A DNA stretch of 64,000 nt from an uncultured Planctomycetales bacterium (GCA_964545575.1 CAZJFL010000008.1:18171-82170), one strand, 5' to 3'; numbered from the stretch's first letter, positions 2,662 through 57,081 are shown. Notes: generated from the sequence alone by a model not told the origin. Program-made: numbers and translations.

Positions 2662-3189
2662 ATGCTTCACCTTAATCCCAATTCCCTCAAAATCGGCTAT
2701 GTAATTTTAGTGGCGACGAGGAAACCGGCGATAAGGACGCTGCAGAGAAAGGCAGGATACGGGGAGAGTGCAAAGTGGACGCATGTGGCAGGGTGCCTGG
2801 GAGGAGTGACGGCGATAGAGGCGAATGTGCCGCGTTCGCACCTGATAGATCTAGAGAAAGAATATGTAAGCCGGGGTTTTGAGATCAAGGTGATGAAGCG
2901 TAAGGCTCAGAAAGCAGAGGAAAGATATAAGGTCGCGCTCTGGTGGGCGACGATGAATAATCTGCCTTATGACGTGCTGCAATTTTTCTGGTTTCCTTTG
3001 TCGATTTTAAGTGGTAAAATCGGTATAGTTTTGCATAATATATTCAGCAGCAGAAAAAGATTTCTCTGCTCTGAGCTGATTGCTACCGGATTCTATAAAG
3101 AAGGGGATTATTGTTTCGAGAAGCCGGCGGAAAATGTTTTGCCGGCGGATTTTAATAATCCGGGATTATTTGAAGAGGTAGATAAATAG
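2662..3189 (+). CDS. Permuted papain-like (YiiX/DUF830-like, NlpC/P60 superfamily) protein
   Basis: Matches the YiiX family in WTHVAGCLG (cf. YSHTGM) and FLCSELIATGFYKEG (cf. QYCSEVVWKVY). The ORF track starts at 2566, but the ATG at 2662 lies just after motif copy 2. Confidence 0.45.
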   Translation: MLHLNPNSLKIGYVILVATRKPAIRTLQRKAGYGESAKWTHVAGCLGGVTAIEANVPRSHLIDLEKEYVSRGFEIKVMKRKAQKAEERYKVALWWATMNNLPYDVLQFFWFPLSILSGKIGIVLHNIFSSRKRFLCSELIATGFYKEGDYCFEKPAENVLPADFNNPGLFEEVDK

Positions 3190-3198
3190 GAGGAAGAG

Positions 3199-3540
3199 AT
3201 GAAAAAGATAATTGTATTACTGGTGCTGCTTCTGGCAGTGGCAGTGACAAGCGCCTATGCGCATACGCCGTCAGATATGAAGATTAGCTTTGACCCGGGG
3301 ACCAAGGTGTTAAAGCTGGTGATCATGCATGACACCCCTGATCCGGTTCTGCACTACATCAAGAGAGTGAACGTGGAATTAAACGGTAAAGAGGTCATTA
3401 ACGAAGAGTTCTCCCGCCAGGAGAATAATAAGAGTCAGACAGTCAGCTATACGATCCCCAATGCCAAGCCAGGCGATATTATTACGGTATATGTGCGTTG
3501 CAGCATCTTCGGAAGGTTGAAAAGAACGATTAAGATATAG
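3199..3540 (+). CDS. Hypothetical secreted protein
   Basis: Signal peptide MKKIIVLLVLLLAVAVTSAYA. RBS AGGAGG upstream. No recognisable domain. Confidence 0.4.
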   Translation: MKKIIVLLVLLLAVAVTSAYAHTPSDMKISFDPGTKVLKLVIMHDTPDPVLHYIKRVNVELNGKEVINEEFSRQENNKSQTVSYTIPNAKPGDIITVYVRCSIFGRLKRTIKI

Positions 3541-3557
3541 AGAAAGGAGGCAGTAAA

Positions 3558-3836
3558 ATGGCTAAGTTTTTCATGTACGGAAAGTATTCAGCGGAGGCGA
3601 TCAAGGGGATCTCGGCTGAGAGGACGAAGAAGGCAGTTGATCTGATCGCCAAGGCCGGCGGCAAGGTGAATTCTATGTACGCGCTGCTGGGAAAGTATGA
3701 CATCGTCTTGATCGCGGACTTCCCCACAGTGGCAGAGGTGATGAAGGCCTCGATAGAATTAAATAAGCTGACGAATATTTCCTTTACCAGCTTTCCTGCG
3801 ATCAGCATAGAGGAATTCGACAAGGTCACGGCGTAA
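3558..3836 (+). CDS. GYD domain protein
   Basis: N-terminus MAKFFMYGKYSAEAIKGIS and a length of about 90 aa match the GYD family. RBS AAGGAGG upstream. Confidence 0.6.
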   Translation: MAKFFMYGKYSAEAIKGISAERTKKAVDLIAKAGGKVNSMYALLGKYDIVLIADFPTVAEVMKASIELNKLTNISFTSFPAISIEEFDKVTA

Positions 3837-5703: not shown

Positions 5704-6204
5704 ATGGAACCTTTAGAAATACTTAAGATAAGAAGAAGTATCAGGGAATACTCGGATGAGAGAATAGCAAAAGATTTTTTAGAGAAAATAGTAGAGGCAG
5801 CCAGGTTTGCCCCCACTGCCAGAAATGTCCAACCTTGGGAGTTTATTGTCATCACCGAGACACCCACCTTAAAAAAATTCGCTGAATTAGCCGAGAACGG
5901 AAGATTCCTGGCCCAGGCCAAGGCCTGTATTGCGGTATTTTGCGCGGAGACAAAATATTACTTGGAAGACGGATGCGCGGCTACTTGTAATATCCTGCTT
6001 GCCGCGGCTGCCTTGGGTGTTGGTTCCTGCTGGGTTGCCGGGGATAAGAAACCTTATTGCGCCGAAGTTGCTAAAATTTTAAATGTGCCTATCGCCTATA
6101 AATTGGTGAGCTTGGTTGCTTTAGGTTACCCTAAATCCAAAGATAGTTTTCATCCTGCAGAAAAAAGAGGCTTAAAAGAAGTGATCCACTGGGAGAAATT
6201 TTGA
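5704..6204 (+). CDS. Nitroreductase family protein
   Basis: RRSIREY...APTARNVQPWEFIVI is the nitroreductase FMN-binding signature. Confidence 0.7.
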   Translation: MEPLEILKIRRSIREYSDERIAKDFLEKIVEAARFAPTARNVQPWEFIVITETPTLKKFAELAENGRFLAQAKACIAVFCAETKYYLEDGCAATCNILLAAAALGVGSCWVAGDKKPYCAEVAKILNVPIAYKLVSLVALGYPKSKDSFHPAEKRGLKEVIHWEKF

Positions 6205-6458
6205 ACGGCAAGAAAGGGTTCGTTTCATTATTGGGGCTGGTGATAACTTTGGGGATAATTTTATTTATGGCTTATGTTTTATTGAATAGTTATCTTAAGA
6301 TACCGTCAGCCGGGCGGGGAATTGATAATAGCGATATTATGCCGCAAACCGCTACACCAGGCATTCCTTACCGCTCTATTGTGGACAGCACTAAAAGCAC
6401 CTTAGAGAGTATTGAGAAAGAGCATCAAAAGCAGCTGGATGCCGCGGTAGGGCATTAG
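6201..6458 (+). CDS. Hypothetical small membrane protein
   Basis: Single TM helix GFVSLLGLVITLGIILFMAYVLL. Start overlaps the upstream stop. Confidence 0.3.
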   Translation: MNGKKGFVSLLGLVITLGIILFMAYVLLNSYLKIPSAGRGIDNSDIMPQTATPGIPYRSIVDSTKSTLESIEKEHQKQLDAAVGH

Positions 6459-6478
6459 AGCAGGAAAAGGGGCAAAAA

Positions 6479-6916
6479 ATGAATATTAAACGGATAATAG
6501 CTAAGGAAGGGCTGATTATTTTAGGATTGTCTATTGTATTATATCTTTTTATCTTTCTTTTTCTAAGAAATATGCCTGTTGCATTGCCAAAATACAGGTT
6601 GGAATTTGCTAACGGAGAAATACGCACCATTATTATAAATCCGGAGATCCGCAATGATTCTAATTATAACAAACTTTTAGAAGAAGCATATAATCCGCCG
6701 CCAAAACTCATTGAGAAACGCATTAAAGAATTTATAAGGGCGGGTAATATTAAATCTGCCTTAAAAAGCTCAAGCTGTATAAATTCTTACCAGGTTTATA
6801 TATCTAAATTATATAGCTACCTTCTCGGCGTAACATTTATTTTAAAATTAGCCATTATCTATCTTATTTTGCTATTCGCCCGCTTCGCCGTCTGGGCCCT
6901 GAGAACATTGAAATGA
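6479..6916 (+). CDS. Hypothetical membrane protein
   Basis: N- and C-terminal TM helices. No recognisable domain. Confidence 0.3.
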   Translation: MNIKRIIAKEGLIILGLSIVLYLFIFLFLRNMPVALPKYRLEFANGEIRTIIINPEIRNDSNYNKLLEEAYNPPPKLIEKRIKEFIRAGNIKSALKSSSCINSYQVYISKLYSYLLGVTFILKLAIIYLILLFARFAVWALRTLK

Positions 6917-17290: not shown

Positions 17291-17432
17291 TATTAATGAA
17301 ATAGAGGTAAATAAGGGAGTGGAAATTCTGGAACCGTAAGGTGTAAGATTTAACTCGCCTTGCGGTTTTTTTACAGGTTCTGCCATTATTTACTATCTAG
17401 TAAAAATTTCAAAAGGAAGGAGGTAGTAAGTA

Positions 17433-17633
17433 ATGGCAAAAGGTAAAGTAAAGTGGTTCTCGAACCAAAAAGGTTATGGGTTCATTACCCCTGAAGACGG
17501 CAAAGATGTATTCGTGCATCATACCGCGATTCAGGGCGAAGGCTATAAGTCCTTAGAGGAAGGCCAGGAAGTTGAGTTTGAAATCGAACAAGGCCCTAAG
17601 GGCGAACAGGCTACGAAAGTAGTAAAACTCTAA
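17433..17633 (+). CDS. cspA: Cold-shock protein (CspA family)
   Basis: [30 protein letters not shown] carries the RNP1/RNP2 motifs of the cold-shock domain. Confidence 0.9.
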
Positions 17634-17655
17634 CTATCTTACAGAACGCGACAAG

Positions 17656-17688
17656 AGGCCCGGTTAATTTCAACCGGGCCTTTTTCTT
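17656..17688 (+). terminator. Rho-independent terminator
   Basis: Stem AGGCCCGGTT/AACCGGGCCT with loop AATTTCA, followed by TTTTTCTTTC. Confidence 0.6.
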
Positions 17689-28875: not shown

Positions 28876-28932
28876 GGGACAGTTCTTATCCTAATCGAGG
28901 GACGTTTCTTCAGTTAATCGGAGAAGTGTCCC
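28876..28932. repeat. REP-like palindromic units (GGGACRYTTCTY family), left flank of RAYT
   Basis: GGGACAGTTCTTA and GGGACGTTTCTT in one orientation, and GAGAAGTGTCCC in the opposite orientation. Confidence 0.6.
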
Positions 28933-28945
28933 TTTATAATTATAG

Positions 28946-29467
28946 TTAGAGATTCGGGACGGGGTCCAACAGTTTTGATTTTATATTTAATGATCTATAT
29001 TTCCAACTGCTCCACATATAATCGAGGGGGGAGGAAATCAAGTTCGCCCTCAGAGGGTTATATTCAATATAATTTAGGCAATTAATAAGGTACCTATCCT
29101 TCTGGATGACCGTGCTTTTAAATCTCCCTTGCCAGAGATGCCCTACCTTGGCGTATTTCTTATTGAACCAAAGTGTATAAGTTAGCGCTACGCCTTGCAT
29201 AATCTTAGCCAGATCGTTTACTTCTTTGACTTCCACAATTAAATGGATATGGTTGGGCATTATACAATAAGCATATAACTTGAAGTTGTATTTCTTTTTA
29301 TAATGTAGTAAAATCTGTAAATATCTTTCAAAGTCAACATTTTCTCGAAAGACATTTTGTTTTTGATTTCCGCGTTGAATAATATGATAGCAAATATCTG
29401 ATATAAGTAATCTTGGTCCTCTAGGCATATTAATCACCTCCATAATAATAGACGAAAATAAAGTCAT
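28946..29467 (-). mobile_element. IS200-like HuH Y1 transposase, REP-associated tyrosine transposase (RAYT) type
   Basis: HuH motif (HIHLIV), catalytic Tyr region, and the HIIQRGN/YCIMPNH motifs of Transposase_17. Flanked on both sides by inverted GGGAC-type palindromes. Confidence 0.75.
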
Positions 29468-29494
29468 TTTCTAACATAAAAAATTTTCCCCTCA

Positions 29495-29551
29495 GGGACA
29501 CTTCTCGCTTTGGCTTAAGAAACGGCCCTTGTTTGGTTCAAGAAACGTCCC
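29495..29551. repeat. REP-like palindromic units, right flank of RAYT
   Basis: GGGACACTTCTC, AAGAAACGGCCC and AAGAAACGTCCC. These are reverse complements of the left-flank units. Confidence 0.6.
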
Positions 29552-29600
29552 TAAGTTTTTGATGTTTTCTTCCGGATTTTAGTGGTATAATTAACTCGTC

Positions 29601-30209
29601 ATGGATGATTTGGAATTTGTCCAAAGATGTGTCAGAGGGGACGCGCACGCCTGGGACGAATTCATCGAGAAGTATTCCTGCCTCATCTACAACTATATCT
29701 ACAGCGTCTTAAAGATAAAAGGCGCAAAAGACCCCAATCAGGACAACCTAAACGACATCTTTCAGGAAATATTCGTCTTACTTAGAAAAGATAATTTTAA
29801 AAAACTAAGTAGTTTTAAAGCCAGGAACGGATGCTCCCTGGCCAGCTGGCTAAGGCAGGTGGTCATTAACTATAGCATAGATTACCTGCGTAAGGCAAAG
29901 CCCGCACTCTCTCTTGAAGAAGAGATAGGGGAAGACTTAACCCTCAAAGATATAATTGCTGACGACGCCGAATCCGCCCGCCAGGGCCTGCTCAGCGCAG
30001 AAAAAATCGCCGATTTAGCAGATTGCGTAGAGAAGCTGGATACGGAGGACAAATATTTTATTGAGTTGCACTTTAATCAGGGTTTAGATTTGGAAGAATT
30101 AAGGCGGGCGCTAGCGCTTTCGCGCGGAGCGGTGGATATGCGTAAAACCCGACTGATCGAACGCTTAAGGCAATGTTTTAAGAATAAAGGTTTCTGGTTA
30201 GATTTTTAA
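29601..30209 (+). CDS. ECF-type RNA polymerase sigma factor
   Basis: Sigma-70 region 2 (IFQEIFVLLRK...SWLRQVVINYSIDYLRK) and region 4 HTH (ELHFNQGLDLEELRRALALSRGAVDMRKTRLIERLRQ). Confidence 0.8.
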   Translation: MDDLEFVQRCVRGDAHAWDEFIEKYSCLIYNYIYSVLKIKGAKDPNQDNLNDIFQEIFVLLRKDNFKKLSSFKARNGCSLASWLRQVVINYSIDYLRKAKPALSLEEEIGEDLTLKDIIADDAESARQGLLSAEKIADLADCVEKLDTEDKYFIELHFNQGLDLEELRRALALSRGAVDMRKTRLIERLRQCFKNKGFWLDF

Positions 30210-30247
30210 TATCTATGCGTCTATTATATTAGGAAAGGATTAGTCCC

Positions 30248-30955
30248 ATGCAGCATAAATTGGAGAAGTTAATCAAAATCGTCTATCATAAGTATAAGGC
30301 GGATAAAAGCGATAGCGGCCAAGCCCATCCGGATGAAGAAACCATGGCCTGTTTTTGGGAGGATAAACTTACGCCGCAAGAGAGAGAAAGGCTCCTGCTG
30401 CATATCACTAGCTGCGCCACCTGTGCTGAGGCTTCTGCCCTGCAGGCAAAAATATTAGCGGCGCAAGAAGAGCGGGCCGTGCCAGAAGGATTAATTGAGG
30501 CGGTAAAAAGTGCCTGCGCAGGGAAAGAGGGATTATTCTTTTTTGATATAGTTTTAAGGCTAAAGGAGAAAGTAGTGGAAATCCTTAATACTAGCGGCGA
30601 TATTCTGGTAGGGCAGGAGCTGGTGCCTGCGCCGGTATTACGCAGCCGCCAGATAAAGGATTTTAAAGACGAAGTGCATATCTTTAAGGATTTTAGCGAC
30701 ATCAGGGTTGAGGTAAAGGTAGAAAACAAACAGGGTAAGTCTTTTAATCTTACCGTAGTCGCCAGGGAAAAACAGACTGGGGGAGTGATTAAAGACTTAA
30801 GAATCAGTCTCTATAAAGACGAATTAGAACTTGAGTCATATGTTGCTTCTTCCGGAGCGGTCACTTTTGAGCACGTCTTACTGGGGCGATATAAGGTCGA
30901 GATATCTACCTTGGAAAAGAAACTGGCTGCGGTGTTGTTAGAGATCAAAGCATAA
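30248..30955 (+). CDS. Putative soluble anti-sigma factor (ZAS-like H-x3-C-x2-C zinc motif)
   Basis: LLLHITSCATCAE shows the zinc-binding anti-sigma motif about 50 aa from the N-terminus. Located directly downstream of the ECF sigma gene. No TM helix is predicted. Confidence 0.5.
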   Translation: MQHKLEKLIKIVYHKYKADKSDSGQAHPDEETMACFWEDKLTPQERERLLLHITSCATCAEASALQAKILAAQEERAVPEGLIEAVKSACAGKEGLFFFDIVLRLKEKVVEILNTSGDILVGQELVPAPVLRSRQIKDFKDEVHIFKDFSDIRVEVKVENKQGKSFNLTVVAREKQTGGVIKDLRISLYKDELELESYVASSGAVTFEHVLLGRYKVEISTLEKKLAAVLLEIKA

Positions 30956-30959
30956 TCCT

Positions 30960-33161
30960 ATGTCACAGGACTACGAGGCCTTAGTCTTAGAGGTATCCCG
31001 GCAGGCGGATCTGCTTAAGATGGGCATTTTCAAACAGGGGGAATCCGCCCAGACGATCCGGCATTATAGCCAGTGCCGGATAACCGCTGAGGAGGTCGAT
31101 AAGCTCTGCCAGGATTCAGCCTATATTTTACATAAGGTATCCCAGAGAAGCTCTCCAGGCCATGAGCCGCTTGCGGCCTTAAAGAAAATAGGGCAGTTGC
31201 TCTGGGACCAGATGCTGACCCGCCCGGTCAAAGAGAAGCTAAAAGACGCGCCGGCTAAAGGCTTAGTTTTATCTTTAGACGAAGAGCTGATGAACATCCC
31301 CTGGGAACTCCTCTATAGCGGAGAAGATTTCTTATGCCTTAAGTTTATCCTGGGCAGGGTCCTGATTACCAAAGATGAGACCCGCCCTGTCCAATACCGC
31401 AGTCTCGCCAATACTCCCTTGAAGATGCTAGTTTTGGCAAATCCCACCAATGACTTAAAAAGCGCCTATCAGGAAGGCGTGCAGCTGAAGAATCAGTTTG
31501 ACCGGATGAGAAAACAGGTACATATCGATTTTAAATCCACTCATATCGATACCATATACACCAAGAAGATATTGCGCGATTACGATATCGTGCATTTTGC
31601 CGGGCACTGCGAATATGATCAGGATAATCCTGAAAATACCGGTTGGCTGCTTAGCGACGGGAGGCTCAGCCCCCGGGATATCCTCTCGCTGGGTGAGACG
31701 CCGCCTCTACCGAGCCTGGTATTTTCCAATGCCTGCTATTCTGCTAAATGTACTTTGGGCTCGATAGGCCTGGATTACCAGAAAAAAACCTACAGTCTTG
31801 CTGCGGCATTTTTATTTTCCGGGGTGCGGCACTATATCGGGGCTATCCGTAATATAGAAGACCCGGCAAGCCTTGTCTTTGCCAGGGAGTTCTATCTGCA
31901 ATTGATTAAAGGCGAACCGGTGGGCGAATGCCTGCGCCTGGGGAGGCTAAAATTAATCAAGGAATACGGGCCGGGTTCTCTGCATTGGGCAAATTATCTT
32001 CTTTACGGAGACCCTAGCTTCATACTCCTCCCCGGCAAAACAAAGGCGCCCGCGGCGAGAATTAAAAGAAAGAAGCTGTCTAAGAAAGTAGTGCTAACTA
32101 TCGCCTTGGTAGTAGCGGTAGTCTCGCTTGCTGTTTATCTTTGGCTCTGGCTGCCCACCCTTAACCCCAGCGCATATTCGCTTTATCTAGAGAGCCGTAA
32201 ATTATCCTTAAAAGGCAGGAACATGGAGGTAATTACAATTGCCGAGCAGATTATTGGAAAAGACGCTTTATTCTTACCGGTTTATCCGTTGCTAGCCGAT
32301 ACCTATCAGAGACTAGGCAAGCGGGACCTGGCTTTAAAATATTATTTTGACTACATTCTCTACAGTGAAAAGAAGCGCGATCAGAAAAACCTCAGCGCCG
32401 CTTATACGGGTATCGGCTGGTTTTATCAGCAGCAGGGAGAATATGCCAAGTCATTTGATTTCTATCATAAGGCGCTTGCCTTAAGTAAGGAGAATAACGA
32501 TAAACTTAACGAAGCTACGGCGCTTCGGAAGCTGGCTTTATGGTATACGGATAAAGAAGATTACGCTAAAGCGCTTGAGCTCCTGACTAAAAGTTCCGAG
32601 ATCAATCGGGAGCGGCAGCATATTTATGAGCACCGCTATAACTTAGCCTGCGATTATTTTGATATCGGGCTGGTTTTTAGCGATAGGGATGAGTTTGATA
32701 GCGCTAAAGAGTTTTACCAGAAAAGCCGGGCCGTGTTTGATAAATTAGAATTAAAGCGTGAATTAAGCGACTATTATTTTAATCTCGGAGAAATATGCCA
32801 GTACGAAAAACAGTATCAGAAAGCCCGGGATTATTATTTTAAGGGTTTAAAAATTGACCAGGTGCAGGGCAACCTGCCAAGTATCGCCAGCGATTACGAG
32901 ATGATCGGAGCGCTTTACCTGGAGATGGGTAATGAGGGCGAGGCAGAACGGTTCTTCCTGCAATCGGCCGCTACCGCCAAAACCATAGACGCGCCGCTTG
33001 AACTGGCCGCGGCTTATTACGACTTAGGCGCGCTCTATAAGCAGAAAGGCCGTAAGAACAAAGCCCGGGAATATTTCCGGCAGGCGCAAGAGATTTATCT
33101 TAAGATCAATCACCCGGCTTACACAGAGATTAAAGAAGAATTACTGGAGATGAGTAATTAA
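30960..33161 (+). CDS. CHAT domain (caspase-like protease) - TM helix - TPR repeat protein
   Basis: His/Cys dyad (HFAGHCEYD ... LVFSNACYS). One TM helix (VVLTIALVVAVVSLAVYLWLWL). At least six C-terminal TPR-like repeats (AYTGIGWFYQQQGEYAKSFDFYHKALAL...). Confidence 0.75.
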   Translation: MSQDYEALVLEVSRQADLLKMGIFKQGESAQTIRHYSQCRITAEEVDKLCQDSAYILHKVSQRSSPGHEPLAALKKIGQLLWDQMLTRPVKEKLKDAPAKGLVLSLDEELMNIPWELLYSGEDFLCLKFILGRVLITKDETRPVQYRSLANTPLKMLVLANPTNDLKSAYQEGVQLKNQFDRMRKQVHIDFKSTHIDTIYTKKILRDYDIVHFAGHCEYDQDNPENTGWLLSDGRLSPRDILSLGETPPLPSLVFSNACYSAKCTLGSIGLDYQKKTYSLAAAFLFSGVRHYIGAIRNIEDPASLVFAREFYLQLIKGEPVGECLRLGRLKLIKEYGPGSLHWANYLLYGDPSFILLPGKTKAPAARIKRKKLSKKVVLTIALVVAVVSLAVYLWLWLPTLNPSAYSLYLESRKLSLKGRNMEVITIAEQIIGKDALFLPVYPLLADTYQRLGKRDLALKYYFDYILYSEKKRDQKNLSAAYTGIGWFYQQQGEYAKSFDFYHKALALSKENNDKLNEATALRKLALWYTDKEDYAKALELLTKSSEINRERQHIYEHRYNLACDYFDIGLVFSDRDEFDSAKEFYQKSRAVFDKLELKRELSDYYFNLGEICQYEKQYQKARDYYFKGLKIDQVQGNLPSIASDYEMIGALYLEMGNEGEAERFFLQSAATAKTIDAPLELAAAYYDLGALYKQKGRKNKAREYFRQAQEIYLKINHPAYTEIKEELLEMSN

Positions 33162-33228: not shown

Positions 33229-33642
33229 TTATTTTACTCTTGTTGATGCTGGATTCGGTTCCGACGGAGGATACGGCGGTGAGTCTCCTGTTGGTACACC
33301 TACCGTACCTGACGGGCCATACCTGTCAAACACGTAGTCCGGTTTAAAAAGCGGCTCATAATATCTCGGTATCGCTGCCGGGAAAGTTATTATGTCCCAT
33401 ATTCCGGAAAACATCCTTCCTGCCGTAAATGCTAATCCCTTGAAGAATCCGGCAAAGCAACCCACAGCCATATTCTTGCTGATTTTCCACTCTTCATCCA
33501 TTGTCTGGGGTATTTCTACCCAACAAGACAAGATGTTTGCTACGCCCCTGGTTAATTTATCGCCGGGACCCTTGGCGTATGCCGCTGCGGCAAAACTTAA
33601 CAACATCACACCTACCAATAAGACAACTACTATACTCCTCAT
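33229..33642 (-). CDS. Small exported protein, exosortase-system-associated TIGR04073-like
   Basis: Signal peptide, then KLTRGVANILSCWVEIPQTMDEEW, which resembles the conserved core of that family. RBS AGGAGGTG lies 6 nt upstream of the chosen ATG. Confidence 0.4.
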   Translation of the reverse strand: MRSIVVVLLVGVMLLSFAAAAYAKGPGDKLTRGVANILSCWVEIPQTMDEEWKISKNMAVGCFAGFFKGLAFTAGRMFSGIWDIITFPAAIPRYYEPLFKPDYVFDRYGPSGTVGVPTGDSPPYPPSEPNPASTRVK

Positions 33643-33854
33643 ATATCCACCTCCTTTGAAAGATAAACTAACATACAATCCGGCTATTGTCAATATTTTT
33701 TTTAAAAAAATTCCAGTTAGATTTCAACACTTCTTGCGTCTATTAAGTGAGGGCACAAGTTATGGAGCAGTCTACTGCAGAGAGGCGACATAACTTGTAT
33801 GCCCGAACTTATCCCGAGTGCAGACACGAAGGATTATGGGTAGGAGGTGGCAAG

Positions 33855-35417
33855 ATGAAAAAACATATCGTAGTAATGCTGGTAGTTTGCGGCCTAGCGC
33901 TGGTGTCTTCAGGCGTCAGTTCTTCTGCCGAGGAGCTTGCCTGGCAGGAGATAGCCAGGGGCAGGCCGGATTTAAGCACGGTGCTGGTTGATACGCAAGA
34001 TCCGCGGATTATTTATTGCGGTTCGGGGAACACTATTTTTAAAACAGAGGACAGTGCGCAAAGTTGGCAAAGCGTTTTATCCCTGTCCGGCCGGGATAAA
34101 ACCGTCAATCTATTATCTTTCGATCCTTATAATAAGAACGCTCTTTATGCCGCAGCTAAGGCAGGGCTTTTCTATAGCCTCAATCAGGGAAGAAATTGGC
34201 GCAGGATTTTCCGCGGCAAAAATTACCTGGAGAGCGACTGCACGGCATTGGCAATTTTACCTGAAGGCATTTATTTAGGTACCAAAGCAGGGTTGTTTTT
34301 AAGCAAGGATAGGGGCCGCAGCTGGTATAAAGAAAAATCATTTCTCTCCAGCAGCCATATCTTAGCGATTGCTTATGATGCCAGAGAGCCGGATTATCTT
34401 TATGTTGCCTCTAGCAACGGAGTATTTAAAACCGCAGACGGCGGCCGTAATTGGGAGAGGGTTTTTATCGGCAGTCCGTCCGAAAACGGCGCGGATACCC
34501 CTGAAGATGATCTTGGTAACAGAGACGAAGAGGTGAGATTTTCCGATATAAAGCATATTGCCATTGACCCGCAAAATCTTAATTGCCTGTATCTGGCAAC
34601 CTCCCGCGGTGTTTATCAGACTAAAGATAGAGGCAAGAACTGGGAATTGCTGACTACGTTTGGCTTACTCAGTAAAGACGTAAGATTTGTTTTGGCCTCT
34701 TCAGGAAAAAATCTTTATGCCGCCACCAAATCAGCGGTGTTTGTATTTAACCAGGAGCGTTGGGAGGAGCTGTCGTTAAGGCTGCCTACGGAAGAAGTCA
34801 GGTTTTTAGCATCCGACAGCCGGGGAAACTTATACGCCGCCTGCGATAAAGGATTATTTAAGGCGGTTATAGATTATTCGGATAGTTATCAAGATAAAAA
34901 AATTACAGCAGCATCTGCTGAAGGAGAGCCGGATATCCGCCAGGTGCAACAGGCGGCAATTCGCTATGCCGAAGTAGAGCCGGAGAAGATAAAAAAATGG
35001 CGCAGGCAGGCAGCGCATAAAGCATTGCTGCCTACGTTGAGCGTCGGTATAGACCGGGATACCGGAGATCTCTGGCACTGGGAGGGCGGTTCCAGCACCA
35101 AGCCGGAAGATGATGTCTTAAGAAGGGGCCGCGATAGTATAGGTTGGGATGTGTCTTTAAGCTGGAATCTGGGAGAATTGATCTGGAACGACGACCAGAC
35201 TTCCATAGATGTGCGTTCGCGCCTGATGGTCGAGCTGCGCGACGACATCCTGGATGAGGTGACTAAGCTATATTTTGAACGCCTGAGAATCAAAGCAGAA
35301 TTAGATAACTTGGCTATCGAAGACAGGAAGAAGCGCTTTGAAAAAGAGTTAAGGCTGCGGGAGCTGACTGCCAACCTTGATGCGCTGACCGGAGGATATT
35401 TTTCAGAGCATACTTGA
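33855..35417 (+). CDS. Secreted BNR/Asp-box repeat beta-propeller protein with C-terminal coiled coil
   Basis: Signal peptide, then at least five Asp-box-like repeats (SAQSWQSV, QGRNWRRI, DRGRSWYK, DGGRNWERV, DRGKNWELL). RBS AGGAGGTG is before the ATG at 33855. Confidence 0.55.
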   Translation: MKKHIVVMLVVCGLALVSSGVSSSAEELAWQEIARGRPDLSTVLVDTQDPRIIYCGSGNTIFKTEDSAQSWQSVLSLSGRDKTVNLLSFDPYNKNALYAAAKAGLFYSLNQGRNWRRIFRGKNYLESDCTALAILPEGIYLGTKAGLFLSKDRGRSWYKEKSFLSSSHILAIAYDAREPDYLYVASSNGVFKTADGGRNWERVFIGSPSENGADTPEDDLGNRDEEVRFSDIKHIAIDPQNLNCLYLATSRGVYQTKDRGKNWELLTTFGLLSKDVRFVLASSGKNLYAATKSAVFVFNQERWEELSLRLPTEEVRFLASDSRGNLYAACDKGLFKAVIDYSDSYQDKKITAASAEGEPDIRQVQQAAIRYAEVEPEKIKKWRRQAAHKALLPTLSVGIDRDTGDLWHWEGGSSTKPEDDVLRRGRDSIGWDVSLSWNLGELIWNDDQTSIDVRSRLMVELRDDILDEVTKLYFERLRIKAELDNLAIEDRKKRFEKELRLRELTANLDALTGGYFSEHT

Positions 35418-35520: not shown

Positions 35521-35844
35521 ATGGAAGAAGCCGATGTTTTAAACAGAAGGGCTTTCCGCAGGATTCCGGTAGAACTTTCTTTGAGATTCTTTTCCCCGCG
35601 CTCCAACGCATGGCGCCTGGTGAAAACTTCTGATATTAGCGCGCAGGGAATAGGCTTATTGACGGAAGATAAGTTAATGCCAAATACCCCTTTAGAGACC
35701 TGGCTGCCGGTCCCCGATACCGGAGAATCTTTGTATAGCCGGGGGGAAGTGGCCTGGTCAAAAAGATTAGCGCCCCGTAAGTACAGGGTGGGAGTCAATT
35801 TAGAAAAACCGGATTTGATCTCCCGCCTCCTCCAGACGCGTTAA
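35521..35844 (+). CDS. PilZ domain protein (c-di-GMP binding)
   Basis: RRAFRRIPV (RxxxR) and DISAQGIGLL (D/NxSxxG) PilZ signatures. Confidence 0.7.
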   Translation: MEEADVLNRRAFRRIPVELSLRFFSPRSNAWRLVKTSDISAQGIGLLTEDKLMPNTPLETWLPVPDTGESLYSRGEVAWSKRLAPRKYRVGVNLEKPDLISRLLQTR

Positions 35845-57005: not shown

Positions 57006-57081
57006 GGGGCGGTAGTTCAGTTGGGAGAACGCTACATTCGCATTGTAGAGGTCGCGGGTTCAAATCCCGCTCGCTCCACCA
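57006..57081 (+). tRNA. tRNA-Ala (anticodon CGC), CCA encoded
   Basis: Cloverleaf: acceptor GGGGCGG/TCGCTCC with the G3:U70 Ala identity pair, D-arm GTTC...GAAC, anticodon stem CTACA/TGTAG with loop TTCGCAT, T-arm GCGGG-TTCAAAT-CCCGC, and a 3' ACCA. Confidence 0.85.

Follow-up and report, generated by a model that had tools for sequence, protein, structure and literature searches.

How might a bacterium carry a signal from outside the cell to a sigma factor whose anti-sigma factor has no membrane segment? The question is raised by a 64,000-nucleotide (nt) stretch of DNA from an uncultured Planctomycetales bacterium (GCA_964545575.1 CAZJFL010000008.1:18171-82170; here, the window). A first-pass annotation of the window had proposed that three adjacent genes between positions 29,601 and 33,161 encode a sigma factor of the extracytoplasmic function (ECF) type, a soluble zinc-binding anti-sigma (ZAS) factor, and a membrane protein that joins a CHAT caspase-like domain to an array of TPR repeats. 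It read this triad as a signaling module in which the TPR part outside the cell controls the CHAT protease inside, which could in turn cleave the anti-sigma factor. Our analysis supports that interpretation in part: the catalytic dyad, the triad, and the predicted topology hold, and the cleavage step stays a proposal. We regard the three genes as very probably one functional unit. The full sequence of events, in which a signal would lead to CHAT cleavage, release of the sigma factor, and expression of a regulon, we judge to be about evenly balanced between right and wrong.

All three open reading frames (ORFs) lie on the plus strand, with gaps of 38 nt between the sigma and anti-sigma genes and 4 nt between the anti-sigma and CHAT genes, as expected from the annotated picture of co-directional, tightly spaced genes. 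The CHAT protein of the window is identical to one encoded on a 92-kb metagenomic contig. It has hundreds of full-length relatives, at 57 to 77% identity among the 120 listed, and almost all of them are labeled Candidatus Omnitrophota. From 119 relatives in a scan of species-representative genomes, 80 loci were kept, all from Omnitrophota metagenome-assembled or single-cell genomes; a few of the records carry other labels. (L numbers below are our labels for loci.) Searches with tblastn showed that, in 74 of the 74 loci with enough sequence, the CHAT gene has an anti-sigma gene directly upstream on its own strand, and that a sigma gene lies upstream of this pair in all 69 loci where this could be tested. 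Such an arrangement is far beyond chance.

The unit also extends to distant relatives. A profile built from the most distant anti-sigma relatives (20 to 30% identity, with Cys as the first zinc ligand) led to six divergent contexts, and all six are triads of sigma, anti-sigma, and CHAT genes, which often overlap; one of the six comes from a metagenome-assembled genome outside Omnitrophota. Their CHAT partners, together with those of the related loci, fall into three architectures: type A is CHAT followed by a transmembrane (TM) helix and TPR repeats, of about 720 to 735 amino acids (aa); type B is CHAT-TM followed by a helical region without a Pfam TPR match, of 653 to 656 aa; and type C is a cyclase-CHAT-TM-TPR-CsgG-like protein of 1074 aa, encoded on a contig of 60% GC. 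In type B triads, the gene lying immediately upstream of the sigma gene encodes a secreted protein of 253 to 258 aa with no family assignment. The type C fusion suggests that the same protease module has been joined to cyclic-nucleotide signaling, and one member of the fusion's 90%-identity cluster is labeled "Deltaproteobacteria bacterium RBG_13_61_14." Because the sensor parts vary among triads, what stays constant is the pairing of this anti-sigma family with a CHAT domain predicted to be cytoplasmic. At the level of sequence comparison, that pairing is the strongest argument for a direct functional link between the two proteins.

The layout of the 733-aa CHAT protein is borne out by profile matches and hydropathy. 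PF12770 matches with an E value of 2.6e-30 and 106.3 bits (cutoff, 24) and is covered from model position 2 to position 289 of 289, TPR_12 (E value, 2.8e-32) and other TPR families match from about aa 445 to 730, and a single TM helix lies between the two regions. His216, within HFAGH(C), and Cys259, within FSNAC, are invariant in 120 of the 120 close homologs listed, and the dyad motifs are kept in all three partner architectures, so the dyad noted in the first-pass annotation is both present and conserved. The CHAT domain is a putative peptidase. Against sequences in the PDB, a search with the single CHAT domain sequence gave no match, and a CHAT profile gave only marginal matches to CHAT proteins (8tl0_A, 0.015; DdvA 8rot_B, 0.046).

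Several lines of evidence predict that the CHAT domain is inside the cell and the TPR solenoid outside, as the annotation had it, and we regard this orientation as well supported. The helix reaches a Kyte-Doolittle 19-residue maximum of 2.67 and is preceded by nine lysine or arginine (K/R) residues within 20 positions and followed by three within 20. A TM-like segment is found in 116 of 119 full-length homologs, and all 116 are richer in K/R on the N-terminal side (means, 7.5 versus 2.7), in keeping with the positive-inside rule. No N-terminal signal peptide was found in the 733-aa protein. Class III adenylate cyclase consumes cytoplasmic ATP, and since type C fuses this ATP-using domain directly ahead of CHAT, the CHAT domain would be cytoplasmic as well. 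A structural model, confident for these parts only, has a helix at aa 375 to 397 and a TPR solenoid of about 16 helices with a predicted local distance difference test score (pLDDT) of about 90. The anti-sigma factor and the CHAT domain are thereby both predicted to reside in the cytoplasm.

The proposed substrate carries HITSCATC at aa 52 to 59 and has no hydrophobic segment (top Kyte-Doolittle 19-residue window, 1.16), which agrees with the earlier description of an anti-sigma factor with an H-x3-C-x2-C motif and no TM segment. When a profile was run against 1.84 billion representative proteins, 445 clusters matched at E values of ≤1e-10, nearly all of them 230 to 245 aa long. Family counts given here refer to 120 sequences, namely, 119 full-length representatives plus the window protein. 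H52, C56, and C59 are each retained in 119 of the 120, and the first zinc ligand is His in 74 and Cys in 45 (119 together); among close homologs, H27 (within HPDEE) and the other three ligands are all invariant. The resulting H-x24-H-x3-C-x2-C pattern is, in sequence terms, the canonical spacing of zinc-binding anti-sigma domains and conforms to the ZAS ligand pattern H/C-x23-26-H-x3-C-x2-C. Pfam zf-HC2 scores the window copy at 16.7 bits, under its gathering cutoff of 22.2, and matches 32 of 40 close and 15 of 26 distant homologs at E values of ≤0.01, some of them above the cutoff (e.g., 31.6 bits at L081). A family profile run against PDB sequences gave weak yet concordant matches, the best being the anti-sigma domain of DdvA (8rlz_A; E value, 0.0042), followed by RsiW, ChrR, and RsrA. 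The protein is predicted to bind zinc and to inhibit its cognate sigma factor.

A candidate cleavage site emerges from the remainder of the anti-sigma protein. Just ten positions are conserved in at least 95% of the 120 sequences: H52, C56, C59, Arg132, and six residues of the C-terminal beta-sandwich. Arg132 is present in all 120, is preceded by L/F/V/M in 114, and is followed by S/G/A/N in 111; Pro127 is kept in 105, which gives a candidate motif of P-x-x-V-L-R, then S or G. The AlphaFold model has moderate confidence in the N-terminal helical domain (anti-sigma domain helices at aa 30 to 37, 43 to 55, 57 to 72, and 80 to 91) and is confident for the sandwich, and it assigns a pLDDT of <50 to the segment at aa 111 to 138. 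This low-pLDDT segment is the best-conserved stretch of the protein. Cleavage after Arg is a feature of clan CD (caspase-fold) enzymes that include separase, the metacaspases, and the orthocaspases. Because Arg132 is invariant, lies in a segment predicted to be disordered, and is followed by a small residue, we propose it as a candidate P1 residue, and its setting in a flexible linker resembles the P1/P1' site of an Arg-specific clan CD protease. A fold search with the anti-sigma model returned only generic Ig-like or prealbumin-like sandwich matches (best E value, 4.5e-3), with no match in the PDB to Csx30, the sigma inhibitor of the Craspase system considered below. Homologs show weak CarboxypepD_reg and SpaA matches in the sandwich, which is possibly a docking domain.

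If the sigma factor is set free, which genes would it read? Alignment of regions upstream of a gene for a secreted BNR/Sortilin-type beta-propeller, which follows the CHAT gene, yielded the motif GTTAGA(ttt)-N15-CGTCTAT(ta). The window contains three copies of its strict form, GTTAGA-N15-CGTCTAT, where 0.03 would be expected. In copy 1, the final codons of the sigma gene include the -35 element, GTTAGA (TGG TTA GAT TTT TAA, or W-L-D-F-stop; positions 30197 to 30209), an arrangement kept in most related loci, and the -10 element lies in the spacer, 24 nt ahead of the anti-sigma ATG. A slightly relaxed form of the motif gave 125 matches in 1.02 Mb of related loci, almost only before anti-sigma genes, BNR genes, and genes for a repetitive extragenic palindromic (REP)-associated tyrosine transposase (RAYT); 119 of the matches have a spacer of exactly 15 nt. 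The motif precedes the anti-sigma gene in 62 of 73 loci, with three more in which it sits at the sigma 3' end and an insertion lies between, and of the 53 loci in which the BNR gene could be tested, 52 have the motif ahead of that gene. The remaining matches are mostly upstream of RAYT genes.

The divergent triads carry their own versions of these sites. In type B, TTTAGA-N15-CGTCTAAT lies at the stop codon of the sigma gene, and a downstream gene for a 1273-aa secreted GH5/cellulase-like protein is preceded by GTTAGA-N15-CGTCTAAT, so that both sites have changed in parallel to CGTCTAAT, and type C has CGTCTATTTA at the sigma/anti-sigma junction. Because the -10 element is of the CGTC type, the spacer is fixed, the triad's own operon has a site, and the two type B sites changed in parallel, we propose by association that GTTAGA-N15-CGTCTAT is the promoter read by the sigma factor of the triad.

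Judged by these sites, the BNR propeller is the probable main output of the sigma factor. In 40 of 44 loci, its gene lies downstream of the module and shares its strand. The protein matches Sortilin-Vps10 (5.3e-14) and BNR models, as well as the F510_1955 glycosylhydrolase family at 2.2e-25, which is under that family's cutoff; no family matched its C-terminal region. The start codon was chosen by the signal peptide and an AGGAGGTGG ribosome-binding site.

In the window, the 5' leader of the BNR gene is about 110 nt long (positions 33744 to 33854). It contains a long inverted repeat, with GCACAAGTTATG at 33753 and CATAACTTGTATGC at 33789, and folds with a minimum free energy of -35.1 kcal/mol (z score, -2.74). 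Rfam gave no match in the module region, this leader included. Most related loci have no such insert and place the promoter about 25 to 30 nt from the BNR ATG; inserts occur in a few, e.g., L008, L028, L035, L048, and L074. A small element may have been inserted here, or the insert may act as a regulatory hairpin.

The sigma factor itself is well supported by its family match, as the annotation had claimed. TIGR02937 (sigma70-ECF) scores 78.4 bits against a cutoff of 42.9, and Pfam finds Sigma70_r2 (26.7 bits; cutoff, 24) and Sigma70_r4 (21 bits, slightly below the cutoff of 24.1) and nothing beyond these two regions. Its gene begins without a ribosome-binding site upstream of the ATG. TGnTATAAT or a near variant, judged by eye, stands at an equal distance from the sigma ATG in most of the 69 related loci. 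An ECF-type autoregulatory promoter was sought 5' of the sigma gene and is not there; a housekeeping-type extended -10 element was found instead. Since this element, TGGTATAAT, lies near the ATG and the ECF-type motif is missing there, the sigma gene seems to be transcribed constitutively, and the sequence suggests a leaderless or near-leaderless mRNA made from a housekeeping-type promoter.

Palindromes of the form GGGACAC(C)...GCTTTGGC...(G)GTGTCCC recur across many species in the spacer between the H+-pyrophosphatase (PPase) gene and the sigma gene, in the window at about 29480 to 29560. They are found at L002, L007, L009, L025, L026, L031, L033, L054, L060, L061, L065, L068, and L078 and may be PPase terminator hairpins or REP-like elements.

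In the mechanism that we propose, the sigma factor would be made constitutively from its near-leaderless, housekeeping-type promoter, and the 235-aa anti-sigma factor would hold it inactive in the cytoplasm through the zinc-binding domain. Sensing of a signal by the outside TPR part would activate the cytoplasmic CHAT domain of the same single-pass protein, which would cut the anti-sigma factor within the flexible linker that is conserved in this family, with Arg132 as the likeliest residue before the cut. The cut would part the sigma-binding half from the beta-sandwich and so release the sigma factor. Free sigma would then read GTTAGA-N15-CGTCTAT and induce the BNR propeller, and RAYT too where it is present. 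By re-inducing the anti-sigma and CHAT genes, it would also shut the response off, a form of negative feedback. It is the conservation described above, together with precedents from other systems, that makes cleavage of the anti-sigma factor by CHAT a reasonable proposal.

The features on which this account draws, with their positions, are collected in Table 1.

Table 1. Positions of the triad, its domains, its candidate promoters, and associated features. Positions are those of the window unless a locus is named.
Feature	Position (nt)	Strand	Basis or remark
ECF (group IV) sigma factor, 202 aa	29601..30209	+	TIGR02937, Pfam Sigma70_r2/r4
Extended -10 element TGGTATAAT, housekeeping-sigma type	29583..29591	+	3' end 9 nt ahead of sigma ATG
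Soluble anti-sigma factor, 235 aa: ZAS domain, linker, beta-sandwich	30248..30955	+	Homology, model
Anti-sigma domain, aa ~25-91, ligands H27-x24-H52-x3-C56-x2-C59	30320..30520	+	Conservation
Conserved linker, aa 111-138, predicted disordered; holds Arg132 (nt 30641-30643)	30578..30661	+	pLDDT <50
C-terminal beta-sandwich, aa 142-233, prealbumin- or Ig-like	30671..30946	+	pLDDT 85-91
CHAT-TM-TPR protein, 733 aa, HetF-like architecture	30960..33161	+	
CHAT caspase-like domain, aa 76-351, predicted cytoplasmic	31185..32012	+	PF12770
Predicted catalytic dyad, His216 and Cys259	31605-31607 (His216); 31734-31736 (Cys259)	+	Within CHAT domain
Single TM helix, aa 377-398, N terminus predicted inside	32088..32153	+	Kyte-Doolittle, K/R bias
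TPR solenoid, aa ~403-732, predicted extracytoplasmic, presumed sensor	32166..33155	+	Pfam TPR, model
ECF-type motif, copy 1	30197..30224	+	Sigma/anti-sigma junction
ECF-type motif, copy 2	33716..33743	+	Upstream of BNR propeller gene
ECF-type motif, copy 3	29448..29475	-	Overlaps first ATG of RAYT ORF
Secreted BNR/Sortilin-type beta-propeller, signal peptide MKKHIVVMLVVCGLALVSSGVSSSA	33855..35417	+	
RAYT	28946..29467	-	Y1_Tnp
Inverted 12-mers AGAAACGTCCCT	28898-28909 (-); 29518-29529 (+); 29541-29552 (+)		Flanking RAYT
RAYT copies elsewhere	L001 ~3089-3613; L026 ~6032-6543; L033 ~5970-6487; L052 10291-10826		
Type B triads in Omnitrophota	L083 4518-12550; L085; L090		
Type C fusion: class III adenylate cyclase + CHAT-TM-TPR + CsgG-like	L081 6710-9934; also L082		Beside same-family sigma/anti-sigma

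The principle behind this mechanism is already established in Craspase and CalpL, and the architecture is established in HetF; the window triad is a variant. These systems and DdvA are the closest precedents, and the first-pass annotation mentions none of them. A literature search found two systems that link a CHAT domain to a sigma factor, Craspase (PMC10028731) and DdvA-DdvS (PMC11506125). It found no paper that describes a triad of sigma factor, soluble ZAS factor, and CHAT-TM-TPR protein, within journal coverage that is incomplete.

Craspase is the type III-E CRISPR effector Cas7-11 (gRAMP) acting with Csx29, a TPR-CHAT protease that cleaves Csx30, a protein that binds and inhibits the RpoE-like CASP-sigma; cutting of the inhibitor in or near its linker is proposed to relieve the inhibition (PMC10028731). 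As in the module, a CHAT protease, a soluble inhibitor of an ECF-like sigma factor, and the sigma factor are encoded together, and the proposed consequence of the cut is parallel. The components differ. The Craspase protease is a soluble TPR-CHAT protein and its signal is a target RNA, whereas the protease of the module is a membrane-anchored CHAT-TM-TPR protein and its signal would be extracytoplasmic. The counterpart of Csx30 is a ZAS protein of 235 aa in which no similarity to Csx30 could be detected, and the CASP-sigma model NF041236 gives the window sigma factor 40.1 bits against a cutoff of 100. Craspase also works with Cas7-11, CRISPR RNA, and a CRISPR locus, whereas the neighbors of the module show no such link: no cas genes stand among the called neighbors of the related loci, an observation made without an explicit search for CRISPR arrays. 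The type III CRISPR system CalpL-CalpT-CalpS resembles the module in combining a signal-activated cytoplasmic protease, a soluble anti-sigma factor, and a sigma factor that is ECF-like; its protease, however, is the SAVED-Lon protein CalpL, activated by cyclic tetra-adenylate, rather than a membrane-anchored CHAT protein with an external TPR part.

DdvA of Myxococcus xanthus carries its zinc anti-sigma domain in the cytoplasm and its TPR-CHAT region in the periplasm and is proposed to cleave itself before RseP acts (PMC11506125). Like the module, DdvA-DdvS places an ECF sigma factor under a zinc anti-sigma domain that is linked to TPR repeats and a CHAT domain with a His-Cys dyad. DdvA is a single transmembrane polypeptide whose CHAT domain is periplasmic, whereas the module divides these functions between two genes, with a TM-less anti-sigma factor and a CHAT domain predicted to be cytoplasmic. 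Because the anti-sigma factor is soluble and the CHAT domain lies on the cytoplasmic side, no intramembrane protease would be needed. The same difference separates the module from regulated intramembrane proteolysis by DegS/RseP on RseA and PrsW/RasP on RsiW. There, too, an outside signal causes an anti-sigma factor to be proteolyzed and frees an ECF sigma factor, and the operon is partly autoregulated, but site-1 and site-2 steps are used, whereas in the module a single membrane-spanning protease would carry the signal to an anti-sigma factor without a TM segment.

HetF of Anabaena, the founding CHAT protein, is a membrane-located CHAT-TM-TPR protein that acts with FtsI in division and heterocyst development (PMC8406250). 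The order of CHAT, then TM, then TPR is common to HetF and the window protein (compared with Fig. 4A of PMC8406250). HetF has no reported sigma or anti-sigma partner, in which it differs from the CHAT protein of the module, and the window protein is not a HetF ortholog by NCBIfam NF045509 (15.1 bits; cutoff, 1200). The ECF54 group, for which CHAT, carboxypeptidase, and subtilase neighbors have been reported, was set aside on its description as actinobacterial and lacking an anti-sigma factor. To the interpretation in the first-pass annotation, the present analysis adds a candidate cleavage site and a proposed promoter with a defined set of putative target genes.

Several points weigh against the proposed mechanism. 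Both the proteolysis and the protein-protein contacts are deduced indirectly, and the link between motif and sigma factor is one of association. The core of the CHAT domain is poorly modeled (pLDDT of <50 for aa 135 to 300). The residue at Cys-2 of the CHAT domain is Asn and not acidic, and metacaspases have Asp at this position. The invariant Arg132 could serve another purpose, e.g., binding. The Craspase site in Csx30 follows Leu or Met, which indicates that CHAT enzymes are not uniformly Arg specific. That site is also described as nonconserved (PMC11106740). Finally, the CHAT gene lies downstream of the promoter that we assign to the sigma factor, so the CHAT protein could be a mere member of the regulon.

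This last point feeds the best-surviving alternative, which we nevertheless consider unlikely: the CHAT-TM-TPR protein would be an output of the sigma factor with a role like that of HetF at the envelope or at the site of division, and the anti-sigma factor would be controlled in some other way, e.g., by oxidation or by loss of the zinc, as in RsrA-type ZAS factors. The putative sigma-dependent promoter would indeed drive the anti-sigma and CHAT genes together, HetF, which shares this layout, works together with FtsI in cell division without involving a sigma factor (PMC8406250), and the Cys found as first zinc ligand in 45 of the 120 family members recalls the reported CHCC zinc center of DdvA (PMC11506125). 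An output role, however, leaves two observations unexplained, namely, the constant pairing of CHAT with an anti-sigma factor that has this linker and sandwich, despite swapped sensors, and the invariant Arg in a disordered linker. Moreover, pure-output genes rarely stay overlapping with an anti-sigma gene across lineages.

Somewhat less probable again is a CHAT protein that serves as a membrane scaffold or co-anti-sigma factor. It would tether the sigma/anti-sigma pair via the sandwich or the linker, a signal would free the pair through a conformational change, and the protease would act on itself or on another target. The conserved sandwich and linker do resemble interaction modules, and DdvA is proposed to cleave itself in trans rather than to cut a separate protein (PMC11506125). 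Nevertheless, the invariance of the dyad in all homologs examined argues for a needed catalytic activity, and the sole strictly conserved residue outside the sandwich that is not a zinc ligand is an Arg in a flexible segment. An anti-phage or abortive-infection role like that of Craspase, with CHAT cutting the anti-sigma factor or a toxin precursor upon infection, is highly improbable even though the known CHAT-to-sigma systems are tied to defense. None of the PADLOC defense models recognizes the sigma factor, the anti-sigma factor, the BNR propeller, or RAYT. The neighbors are housekeeping genes: H+-PPase stands upstream of the module in 29 of 51 loci, and genes for ribosomal protein and arginine biosynthesis are found at L087. 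The module also keeps a stable position, and its proteins in the 80 loci are 50 to 77% identical to that of the window, which points to vertical inheritance rather than to a mobile defense island.

Returning to cleavage of the anti-sigma factor by CHAT, we advance a broader claim tentatively, with confidence slightly short of even: that the module represents a new class of ECF control. In this class, a HetF-like CHAT protease would relay an outside signal, cut a soluble ZAS anti-sigma factor after Arg132, and thereby replace a site-1/site-2 cascade, in many Omnitrophota with a compact regulon (the anti-sigma and CHAT genes, a propeller or glycoside-hydrolase-like protein that is secreted, and sometimes RAYT) and elsewhere in sensor-swapped forms, the adenylate cyclase fusion among them.

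The surroundings of the triad in the window include H+-PPase, RAYT, a TIGR04073 protein, the BNR propeller, and a PilZ protein. The first-pass annotation had placed the module directly next to a RAYT transposase, and in the window this stands: Y1_Tnp scores 71.4 bits (cutoff, 23), and NCBIfam REP_Tyr_transpos scores 79.1 bits, marginally below its cutoff of 80. As a property of the module, it does not. RAYT lies beside the sigma gene in only three related loci besides the window, so we reject it as an integral part and regard it as an occasional insertion outside the core module. The motif stands directly upstream of RAYT at L001, L026, and L033 and of a RAYT-like gene at L052, and all three of the other loci with a sigma-adjacent RAYT carry it. 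Because the initial ATG of the ORF falls within motif copy 3, translation probably begins further in, at Met9 (nt 29443) or Met14 (nt 29428). These positions hint that the transposase is under ECF or stress-sigma control.

Two other neighbors flank the BNR gene. The interval that separates it from the CHAT gene holds a TIGR04073 exosortase-system-associated gene (33229 to 33693, minus strand), and the BNR gene is followed by a PilZ-domain gene (35521 to 35844, plus strand). Near the module, the two are present in just a few related loci. Elsewhere in the window, Rfam matches above the gathering score are a cspA thermoregulator at 17313 to 17685 (plus strand), barely above at 80 bits versus 78, and one tRNA at 57006 to 57078 (plus strand).

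Release of an ECF sigma factor by a protease is a central theme of bacterial signaling, and the characterized CHAT cases, Craspase and DdvA, are tied to CRISPR or defense. The predictions made here are precise and cheap: they name a dyad, an Arg as the candidate site of cleavage, a consensus for the promoter, and a regulon of few genes, and they are testable without culturing the organism. The module also offers a natural substrate for studies of CHAT specificity and possibly a compact orthogonal switch for synthetic biology. If the proposed mechanism is true, the same logic would serve ordinary trans-envelope signaling in every testable related genome of an uncultivated phylum. Under the broader claim of a new class, triads of CHAT, anti-sigma, and sigma proteins would be a general bacterial design, from which the CRISPR-linked Craspase branch may derive.

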